Below are positions 1,516 to 4,116 of a stretch of DNA of 5,946 nt, in pieces (position 1 is the stretch's first letter; each line of letters opens with the position of its first letter). The notes under the pieces are model-generated. The model searched no databases. It worked only from the letters and a program-made list of their open reading frames with translations, and was not told where the DNA came from. The DNA comes from a virus (lineage: Duplodnaviria > Heunggongvirae > Uroviricota > Caudoviricetes): the IMG/VR virus record IMGVR_UViG_2667527717_000003. The stretch is one strand, 5' to 3'. The translations under genes were made by a program, and so were the position numbers.

Positions 1516-1806
1516 ATGTCAAAGATATTCCGCCAATGTATGCCTTACGGTATCCGCAAAACAGCTGAGGGGGCTTGGGAAGCATTCAACAGAGACTACC
1601 AGCCCTTAGGGGAGGCTTTTTTCTTCAAAAGAGCACTAACGCAGGCCACTCGAGATGTGTTGGCGCCACCGCCGGTAACTCAGCGCGACGACTGTGTATG
1701 GCTGTATAGCGATATCGAGCACCCGATGCACTCTGAGGCTTACTGGAAAGCGTATTGCCAGCGGCTTAAACATCTTTCTAACCTCAAAATGAAAGATGAA
1801 CGGTAA
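1516..1806 (+). CDS. hypothetical phage protein, 96 aa, function unknown
   Basis: ATG at 1516 preceded by GAGGA (1504-1508) at ~7 nt spacing; TAA at 1804-1806. Lies directly upstream of Q with a 25-bp gap, same strand. No family recognised by eye. Confidence 0.65.
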   Translation: MSKIFRQCMPYGIRKTAEGAWEAFNRDYQPLGEAFFFKRALTQATRDVLAPPPVTQRDDCVWLYSDIEHPMHSEAYWKAYCQRLKHLSNLKMKDER

Positions 1807-2686: not shown

Positions 2687-2786
2687 TATTCAGGGCCCAC
2701 CGAAGGACGGCTCATAACCCAATCCTACGGGCGTATACGCAGGGCCCGCCTTTCAACAACACCCCGTAATGGCGGAGGTGGGAAGT

Positions 2787-3128
2787 ATGAAAATGCACAA
2801 TGCTCCTCATTCCTGGCCTGACTTACTGGAACTCTTACAAAGTTGGTGGCGTGGAGATACGCCGTTGGGCGCAGTGGTTATGTCAATTGTTATGGCTGGC
2901 TTGCGCATTGCCTATTTTGGCGGTGGCGGCGGCTGGAAACGAAAAACGCTTGAGATTTTGCTCTGTGGTGCTCTGACGCTGACTTTTGCATCCGCTCTTG
3001 AGTATGTCGGATGGCCTAAATCGCTTTCTGTTGCCATTGGTGGTGGTGTTGGGCTGATCGGTGTCGATGCTATTCGTGGGGCTGCAATGCGAGTAATCGG
3101 TAACAAGTTTGGTGGCTCTAAGGAGTAA
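2787..3128 (+). CDS. holin, class I (three predicted TM segments) with lambda-S-like dual-start motif Met-Lys-Met; the longest ORF would start at ATG 2769
   Basis: GGAGGTGGG (2775-2783) lies 3 nt before ATG 2787; ATG-AAA-ATG at 2787-2795 gives MKM. Three hydrophobic stretches (LGAVVMSIVMAGLRIAYFGG, TLEILLCGALTLTFASALEY, SLSVAIGGGVGLIGVDAI) and a charged C-terminus. Stop TAA 3126-3128 is 3 nt before the endolysin ATG. Confidence 0.85.
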   Translation: MKMHNAPHSWPDLLELLQSWWRGDTPLGAVVMSIVMAGLRIAYFGGGGGWKRKTLEILLCGALTLTFASALEYVGWPKSLSVAIGGGVGLIGVDAIRGAAMRVIGNKFGGSKE

Positions 3129-3131
3129 TTC

Positions 3132-3608
3132 ATGCAGACACTAAATTCCCAACGTAAAGCTTTCCTGGATATGGTGGCATGGTCAGAAGGAACGGATAAC
3201 GGGCGACAACCGACACGTAATCACGGTTATGACGTTATCGTCGGAGGTGAGTTGTTCACTGATTACTCCGATCACCCTCGCAAACTTGTCACGCTAAACC
3301 CGAAGCTTAAATCAACAGCCGCAGGCCGGTATCAGCTTCTTTCACGCTGGTGGGATGCCTACCGCAAGCAGCTTGGCCTGAAAGATTTTTCGCCAGAAAG
3401 TCAGGACGCTGTGGCGCTGCAGCAGATTAAAGAGCGTGGCGCTTTACCGATGATTGACCGTGGCGATATTCGTCAGGCAATCGACCGTTGCAGCAATATC
3501 TGGGCGTCGTTACCTGGTGCAGGTTACGGTCAGTATGAACATAAAATCGGTGACCTGATTTCCAGGTTTAAAGATGCTGGTGGGGTGGTAAATGAAGCTG
3601 ACTTATAA
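3132..3608 (+). CDS. R: endolysin, lambda R-type lytic transglycosylase
   Basis: 158 aa. From memory, the translation is nearly collinear and near-identical with phage lambda R (shared NQRKAFLDM.AWSEGTDNGRQ.TRNHGYDVIVGGELFTDYSDHPRKLVTLNPKLKST.AGRYQLLSRWWDAYRKQLGLKDFSP.SQDAVALQQIKERGALPMIDRGDIRQAIDRCSNIWASLPGAGYGQ), including the catalytic Glu in WSEGT. AAGGAG RBS at 3120-3125. Confidence 0.95.
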   Translation: MQTLNSQRKAFLDMVAWSEGTDNGRQPTRNHGYDVIVGGELFTDYSDHPRKLVTLNPKLKSTAAGRYQLLSRWWDAYRKQLGLKDFSPESQDAVALQQIKERGALPMIDRGDIRQAIDRCSNIWASLPGAGYGQYEHKIGDLISRFKDAGGVVNEADL

Positions 3609-4116
3609 GATTGTCATCGCGGCATTTTTCTTCTCTGCCTTTGGGGCGCTCGTCTGGTCTGCAAACCATTACCACAGCAAGTATCAGGCAGAAAAGTTGC
3701 GGGCTGATAAAGCGGAAGGTGAAGCTGAATATCAAGGGAAAGTGATAGCTAATCAGGCATTAAACTTCAATCGTTTTAACCAGATAGCAGAAAACGCAAG
3801 CCGATTAAATTCTCTGGTCGACATCGGTCACGAGAAGACAGTCATCAAATACCGTGAGGTTCTGCTCCGTGAAAAGAACTGTGATTTCCCTGTTCCTGCT
3901 GATATTGCTGTCGGGTTGCTCAACTACGCGAACCGTTTACGCGCCAGCGCATTGCACGCCGATTCCGGGTACATTGACCCAGCCGGTGATCGTGCCACTA
4001 CCACCAGAACGTTGACATATTGCCAGGCTGTTCTGTGGATTAACCCATTGTTGGCAGCCATCGAGAAGGCGAATAACCAGTTGGCTGGTGTCCGACAAAT
4101 AGAACAGTCCCGGTAA
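3592..4116 (+). CDS. Rz: Rz-type inner-membrane spanin (i-spanin)
   Basis: 174 aa. Start overlaps the endolysin 3' end by 17 nt. N-terminal TM segment (IVIAAFFFSAFGALVWSA), a long charged, helical-looking middle region, and a C-terminal periplasmic segment with Cys. Position after the endolysin and the embedded Rz1 frame support the call. Confidence 0.85.
   Translation: MKLTYKIVIAAFFFSAFGALVWSANHYHSKYQAEKLRADKAEGEAEYQGKVIANQALNFNRFNQIAENASRLNSLVDIGHEKTVIKYREVLLREKNCDFPVPADIAVGLLNYANRLRASALHADSGYIDPAGDRATTTRTLTYCQAVLWINPLLAAIEKANNQLAGVRQIEQSR
3869..4015 (+). CDS. Rz1: Rz1-type outer-membrane lipoprotein spanin (o-spanin), embedded in the +1 frame of Rz
   Basis: Not in the ORF track (48 codons). 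GTG at 3869 with GAGG (3856-3859) ~9 nt upstream. Translation MKRTVISLFLLILLSGCSTTRTVYAPAHCTPIPGTLTQPVIVPLPPER: positive n-region, hydrophobic core, lipobox LSGC, then a Pro-rich mature part with a second Cys. TGA at 4013-4015, entirely inside Rz. Confidence 0.7.
   Translation: MKRTVISLFLLILLSGCSTTRTVYAPAHCTPIPGTLTQPVIVPLPPER

Follow-up and report, generated by a model that had tools for sequence, protein, structure and literature searches.

Comparison with related loci indicates that ORF96, a 96-codon open reading frame at positions 1516–1806 (+ strand) of the window, the whole stretch of 5,946 nucleotides analysed here, is a real gene, that it is exchanged between related prophages as a cassette, and that it varies independently of both the repeat type of the neighbouring origin and the allele of the antiterminator gene Q. 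We propose that its product is a stand-alone accessory protein of early lytic growth, which acts in trans on a target not confined to this phage, and we give this role about an even chance of being correct. The early co-transcription, the stand-alone action and the nature of the target are what we infer. A small exchangeable accessory gene of a temperate phage is of a familiar kind. The family to which this one belongs is undescribed, and its predicted fold has no neighbour among solved structures.

ORF96 begins with an ATG at 1516 and ends with a TAA at 1804–1806. The Shine-Dalgarno sequence GAGGA (1504–1508, + strand), read directly from the DNA, lies 7 nt upstream of the ATG, and AAGGAGA is found at identical spacing before the homologues in three diverged loci (L002, L003 and L004), in agreement with the good ribosome-binding site noted in the preliminary description. 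The length of ORF96 alone is no evidence for a gene because the ORF listing also holds antisense ORFs of 110–134 aa in the window. Instead, comparative conservation (its homologues, its dN/dS and the kept ribosome-binding site) marks ORF96 as a genuine and well-conserved prophage gene. Full-length 96-aa homologues with 69–100% identity are present in prophages of E. coli, Salmonella houtenae, Serratia and metagenomic scaffolds. In the comparison of these homologues, synonymous differences are near saturation (pS 0.66–0.96) at a pN of 0.12–0.19, dN/dS is 0.03–0.09 where computable, and the differences are biased ~3:1 toward third codon positions. The exact protein occurs on at least 1000 public contigs, each time named hypothetical, and the gene is carried by 32 of the 5426 complete E. 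coli genomes. The ORF had been reported at these coordinates on the + strand, with the proviso that it should be dropped if it were not conserved in related prophages or proved to be untranslated; neither was found, and the gene stands.

ORF96 follows the 3′ part of a primase-helicase gene (88–1200, + strand; DUF5906, PHROG 1156 DNA primase, 753 aa for the full protein) and a probable replication origin (1204–1466), and it precedes Q (1832–2254, + strand; Pfam PF06530 Phage_antitermQ, E 8e-41; PHROG 79). A run of N at 108–127 makes the window sequence ambiguous at that point of the primase-helicase gene. The segment from 1200 to 2300 (1,101 bases searched) is 100% identical to four induced E. 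coli prophages of the vB_EcoM-611R5 type (ON470588 and relatives). The co-orientation and tight spacing with Q that were described earlier hold: both genes lie on the + strand, and the gap from the ORF96 stop to the Q ATG is 25 nt, which accommodates Q's own ribosome-binding site AGAGG (1819–1823, + strand). In consensus scans, the interval from the primase stop (1200) to Q was free of terminator-like and promoter-like sites, the stretch ahead of ORF96 included. With no such site to separate it, ORF96 is most simply part of the early rightward transcript, which ORF96 and Q most likely share with the upstream genes, much as the preliminary description had supposed for co-transcription with Q.

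According to our comparisons, ORF96 is a swappable accessory cassette in a fixed one-gene slot between origin and Q, because homology breaks exactly at 1500/1501 and 1806/1807 with an unrelated gene in between. The exchanged unit (1501–1806, + strand) consists of the ribosome-binding site and the coding sequence. In a blastn comparison of the window with E. coli DEC5E (L107), 98% homology stops at 1500 and resumes at 1807 at 88%. The DEC5E prophage has a 99% identical primase and the same array, and its slot holds an unrelated gene (L107 4789–5019) with its own ribosome-binding site, which encodes a 76-aa CxxC...CxxC protein. A third, again unrelated gene of 139 codons occupies the same slot in NCTC9022 (L106 4791–5210), and neither the 76-aa nor the 139-aa protein has a PHROG match. 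Prophages whose primases are 95–99% identical thus carry different genes at this position. Mosaic junctions are also located at ~1452–1482 and 1814–1840, as seen from sliding identity against L016 and L012. This primase is found in 46 of the 5426 complete E. coli genomes, and 32 of the 46 have ORF96. In some E. coli strains the gene is frameshifted or interrupted (P0007, P0008), as expected for a dispensable gene. In addition, the cassette is found with differing virion modules, which are of the myovirus type in the window phage and of the podovirus type in L003.

ORF96 occupies the map position of the lambdoid nin region, as had been pointed out, and it resembles nin genes in position, strand and exchange as a unit among related phages. 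From a nin pool of 30–50 genes, all of them non-essential under laboratory conditions, an individual phage carries ~10 (PMC5630979). Here, in contrast, the region is reduced to a single slot that holds one gene, and outside phages the ORF96 family has a much wider distribution than nin genes typically have. Homology to nin families (Ren, NinA–NinH and the like) was not detected in PHROG or Pfam. The exchangeable accessory slots of temperate phages (morons and cargo hotspots; compare PMC7067206) likewise have fixed flanks, alternative unrelated genes and a patchy presence among relatives. The 1501–1806 cassette may differ from a moron in what surrounds it. A classical moron, an autonomous transcription unit within a prophage, has its own promoter and terminator, whereas neither was found around 1501–1806, for which consensus scans are weak evidence.

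The family of ORF96 is broad and unnamed, and it has no match in any library searched. A full HMMER scan gave 103 cluster representatives at E≤1e-3 and a profile search gave 254 proteins, with members of ~95–130 aa. A distant subgroup of 106-aa proteins is joined to the ORF96 subgroup by hhalign at 98.9% probability (E 4e-17). This subgroup has 98 matching stretches confirmed in species-representative genomes from many phyla, including Cyanobacteria, several classes of Proteobacteria, Chlorobium, Nitrospira, Acidobacteria, Bacteroidota, Spirochaetes, Myxococcota and others. Members are also found on 62 plasmids, of which 50 are conjugative, in hosts including Enterobacter, Klebsiella, Citrobacter and Salmonella. 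The single plasmid inspected, the IncHI2 plasmid pSE12-01738-1, encodes the 126-aa member WP_007372363.1 (L104 8884–9264). One member neighbours Mrr and HNH genes in a Tn7-like element, and another is located in the replication region of a Klebsiella Jedunavirus, between exonuclease and DNA polymerase. Other bacteria have tandem duplicates or fused copies of the domain (L100 5723–6330; P0111). P0111 was considered as evidence of dimerisation and discarded, since it looks more like two tandem copies joined by fusion or read-through. Among proteins exceeding the family length norm, the only finding is one YozE_SAM_like fusion.

The sequence had been called unrecognised, and it remains so after sensitive searches, which matched no named family. 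The best Pfam hit of ORF96, NDUF_B7, scores 15 bits against a cutoff of 26, and PHROGs gave no match. When 51 family members were compared with Pfam-A, NCBIfam, PHROGs and PADLOC, no library family was matched by more than one member. Literature searches on the names of the phages and on locus tags did not turn up any functional study. The identical E. coli protein UniProt A0A0B0UEA8 and the relatives WP_007372363.1 and Klebsiella phage vB_KpnM_15-38_KLPPOU148 gp15 (BFVD A0A6B9J265) are all annotated as hypothetical. They belong to the same family by sequence or predicted fold, adding to its spread and not to its function.

ORF96 carries the family signature P-Y ... N-R-x-Y ... Y-x-D-x-x-x-P ... 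W-x-x-Y-x-x-x-L-x-x-L, in the form of P10 Y11, N25 R26 x Y28, Y64 x D66, P70, W77, Y80, L84 and L87. Nearly invariant in the family are P10, Y11, N25, R26, Y28, Y64, P70, W77 and Y80; most signature residues are kept in 47–51 of 51 members, D66 in 44 and L84 in 38. The homology search and structure prediction called for in the preliminary description were carried out, and the latter gave a confident alpha/beta model. AlphaFold2 with the family alignment predicts (pLDDT 93.2, pTM 0.84) the order alpha-beta-beta-beta-alpha-beta-alpha, with helices at residues 3–8, 43–49 and 74–88 and strands at 12–15, 21–24, 30–35 and 60–62. The spacing of W77, Y80, L84 and L87 fits one face of the last helix, where their role is probably structural. 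N25-R26-x-Y28 and Y64-x-D66 are located in loops after strands in the model and form a candidate functional site; from these loop positions, the conserved residues might come together as one site on the surface. The model has no significant fold match among solved structures (best Foldseek E 0.76), and a sequence-profile search of the PDB returned nothing significant. This covers the published anti-defence proteins among the structures deposited by April 2026, which match neither in sequence nor in fold at a significant level. The sole returns from the BFVD viral structure library are two uncharacterised relatives.

The surroundings of distant members were surveyed in 85 loci, in which neighbouring ORFs were called with the family gene fixed and a GC3 filter, and 211 flanking proteins were clustered and scanned with Pfam. 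No constant partner gene appears among them, which fits a protein working without an operon partner. One apparent neighbour in 14 loci was rejected: it consists largely of antisense ORFs that overlap the family gene in GC-rich genomes, together with chained small proteins. The only recurrent non-syntenic neighbour of the 106-aa subgroup is a DUF5906 or VapE primase-helicase, found in 11 of 85 loci by clustering; Pfam gave 8 DUF5906 and 5 VapE matches in a neighbour set that deliberately included these primases. The primase-helicase in those distant loci usually lies on the strand opposite to the family gene. S24-type repressors are near the family gene in six loci, and together with the primases they suggest that such loci are early regions of other integrated elements. 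Further flanks are of island type (Uma2, DNA methylases, DarT, AIPR, PIN_8), and many members stand beside housekeeping genes such as those for leucyl-tRNA synthetase, succinate dehydrogenase and UbiD. This mixture of flanks fits a gene that works alone and moves horizontally. Because of the housekeeping neighbours, a purely mobile-element or counter-defence role is not established.

Taken as a whole, the mechanism we favour starts from a translated delayed-early accessory gene, with both translation and transcription read from the sequence. The early rightward transcript would run through cro, primase-helicase, origin, ORF96 and Q. Its ORF96 product would be a compact single-domain alpha/beta protein that stands outside the origin-recognition machinery and acts alone, in trans, early in lytic growth. 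The target may be common to many bacteria, either a component of the host or its defences or a small ligand, and it would be bound through the conserved polar and aromatic residues N25-R26-x-Y28 and Y64-x-D66. The benefit would go to whichever mobile element carries the gene. Any particular target is far less probable than the role in general, and counter-defence, as one such target, we consider unlikely.

Alternatively, ORF96 may be an accessory factor of the replication module, one that modulates the primase-helicase next to it or brings in a replication protein of the host. The gene lies ~320 nt downstream of the DUF5906 primase-helicase and origin in 15 of 16 enterobacterial sequences (the window and 15 loci, with L004 as the exception), and its identity loosely tracks that of the primase. 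The recurrence of DUF5906/VapE primase-helicases near the 106-aa subgroup and the place of the Klebsiella phage homologue between exonuclease and DNA polymerase point the same way. However, the 75%-identical ORF96 of L004 goes with a different origin and an unrelated helicase of the AAA_25 type, a primase is absent within 6 kb at most loci of the family, and distant loci have the gene on the strand opposite the primase operon. Nearly identical primases (95–99%) work with a different gene in the slot, and ORF96 has no similarity to PHROG phage replication families. A small protein encoded beside a primase-helicase recalls phage P4, in which the small protein Cnr regulates the alpha primase-helicase and the C-terminal domain of alpha binds the origin repeats. 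No sequence relationship to Cnr is detectable at the level of PHROG families. Unlike Cnr, ORF96 also accompanies an unrelated helicase and is replaceable. We therefore regard a replication factor as rather improbable.

A second alternative, of similarly low probability, is that ORF96 is host-protective cargo of prophages, plasmids and transposons, serving in superinfection exclusion or as a single-gene defence. It sits in a variable cargo slot, and members of the family are found beside restriction or abortive-infection genes or within ~3 kb of them. Examples are the Mrr and HNH genes of the Tn7-like element and an AAA_15/AAA_21 ATPase in Shewanella, with DarT, AIPR and Uma2 elsewhere. Several distant prophages also have the gene on the strand opposite the early operon. 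In the window, however, ORF96 points the same way as the lytic early operon, and the scans detected no promoter-like site for the gene itself, so it should be silent in a lysogen. There is also no PADLOC match. The Shewanella ATPase gene (638 aa; Shewanella algae L006 3963–5879) immediately precedes the family gene and is co-oriented with it, and a second Shewanella algae strain has a transposase and a 210-aa gene at the site of the ATPase. The pair could be a defence-type pairing or a coincidence.

That the ORF binds the GGTGAC array, as the preliminary description had suggested, is highly unlikely. In its favour are only the neighbouring position of the array and a computed pI of 8.8, which is mildly basic. 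GGTGAC occurs 14 times in the window (2.15 expected), with 10 of the 14 sites within 1204–1466. There, ten GGTGAC(G/A)G sites are arranged in inverted groups, with inverted-repeat arms at 1204–1243/1427–1466 and 1280–1314/1355–1389 around an AT-rich centre (~1294–1375), a layout that probably represents a replication origin just 3′ of its initiator gene. A sub-threshold Rfam microRNA match at 1276–1394 merely reflects the large inverted repeat. When array, ORF96 and primase were compared between the window and 15 related loci, the window array was found to be of the GGTGACGG type, while L014, L016 and L017 have GGTGGCAG arrays despite a 100% identical ORF96. Proteins with 69–75% identity accompany other repeats, which are GGTAACAG in Serratia-type loci, GGTGACAG in L019 and, beside the unrelated AAA_25 helicase-primase, GCGGGACA in L004. 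Altogether the repeat swap is seen in L014, L016, L017, L002 and L019–L023. In addition, ORF96 has no match above threshold to helix-turn-helix or other DNA-binding families.

The repeat type follows the primase instead. The primases of L016 and the window phage differ at 14 positions over the 753-aa alignment, and 13 of these fall in one 50-column block holding residues 713–745, where they were read as P713A, R715K, V716L, I718V, F721M, V722T, Y723V, I725M, I727M, V729A, N732C, S735N and S745T. This C-terminal patch (1075–1173, + strand; codons 713–745 of the DUF5906 primase-helicase) is the sole protein change that accompanies the switch from GGTGACGG to GGTGGCAG in L016. Because the repeat type co-varies with the patch and not with ORF96, the patch is most likely the reader of the array. 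ORF96 was rejected as an origin-repeat (iteron) binder on the same grounds.

Modulation of Q, which had also been raised, seems just as remote. ORF96 adjoins Q in most loci and is probably co-transcribed with it. However, an identical ORF96 stands beside a Q that is only 38% identical to that of the window (L012–14, L017) or 89% identical (L015–16). Elsewhere Q does not adjoin it at all: the fetched loci L003 and L018 contain no Q-like sequence anywhere, and in L019 Q is 5 kb downstream. In addition, a recombination junction falls exactly between ORF96 and Q, and most family members have no Q nearby. A Q-associated regulator was rejected since both constant linkage and co-variation with the Q allele are absent; judged by these pairings, ORF96 is not tuned to Q. 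In L003, a prophage of Salmonella houtenae, ORF96 is followed not by Q but by the gene of a 91-aa protein of PHROG 16553 ("transcriptional repressor", 6369–6644). This prophage has a structural module of the podovirus type, and its late-gene switch seems to be of another kind.

A metal site formed by Cys and His residues (C8, C60, H69, H72, C81 and H86) had been suggested as well. These residues are all present in the ORF96 of the window, and only C8 and H69 are invariant among six aligned 96-aa sequences. Within this subfamily, C60 is replaced by S, C81 by S or G, H72 by K, E, A or D, and H86 by R or K. Across 51 family members all six positions are mostly occupied by other residues (C8 mostly by N, C60 by K/T, H69 by N, H72 by N, C81 by S/F and H86 by R/K). 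A zinc-finger-like protein was rejected because a conserved set of three or four ligands is absent, and the alignment indicates that ORF96 is not a Cys/His metal protein. Lastly, a chance ORF or decaying pseudogene, which the shortness of ORF96, its unannotated function and random ORFs of similar length in the window might suggest, has a negligible probability in view of the dN/dS of 0.03–0.09 at near-saturated synonymous sites, the exact sequence on at least 1000 contigs, the 98.9% profile link to the distant subgroup and the confident predicted fold.

The window continues past Q with about 500 nt of non-coding DNA (2255–2768), after which genes for holin, endolysin, Rz with Rz1 and both terminase subunits (small and large) follow. 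A promoter-like site is located at 2228–2255 and a terminator-like site at 2660–2681; the sites in 2228–2681 are candidates for the late promoter and for terminators overridden by Q. A GC-rich hairpin with a T run lies at ~2406–2437, where a sub-threshold ctRNA match was also obtained; Rfam and tRNA scans of the window gave nothing above threshold. The holin ORF (2769–3128) has a possible start at 2769, and at the GenBank start, 2787, the sequence Met-Lys-Met recalls the dual-start holin/antiholin motif of lambda S. Inside the Rz gene (3592–4116), a 53-aa ORF in a different frame (3854–4015), which is unannotated in ON470588, has a signal-peptide-like start and an LSGC lipobox and is probably the Rz1 outer-membrane spanin.

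In this study, three ideas about ORF96, as a repeat binder, a Q modulator or a metal protein, were removed. Recognition of the repeats would pass to the C-terminal patch of the primase, and the junction between origin and Q is a one-gene exchangeable slot. The result is incremental, since small genes of unknown function are common in the accessory slots of phages. The wider interest lies in the family, which has hundreds of sequence clusters in many phyla and on clinically relevant plasmids and is without an entry in Pfam, NCBIfam or PHROG. ORF96 might be the first noticed phage representative of a family of single-domain effectors with a new fold carried by mobile elements, for example a counter-defence protein or a ligand sponge that uses its Asn-Arg-x-Tyr and Tyr-x-Asp residues. 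We hold this to be an unlikely reading, and the known defence models of PADLOC do not match the family. If it were true, such a family would have spread horizontally across many bacterial phyla, through phages and large conjugative plasmids as well as Tn7-like elements and chromosomal islands. Both a new family entry and a screen against defence systems would be reasonable for the proteins described here.
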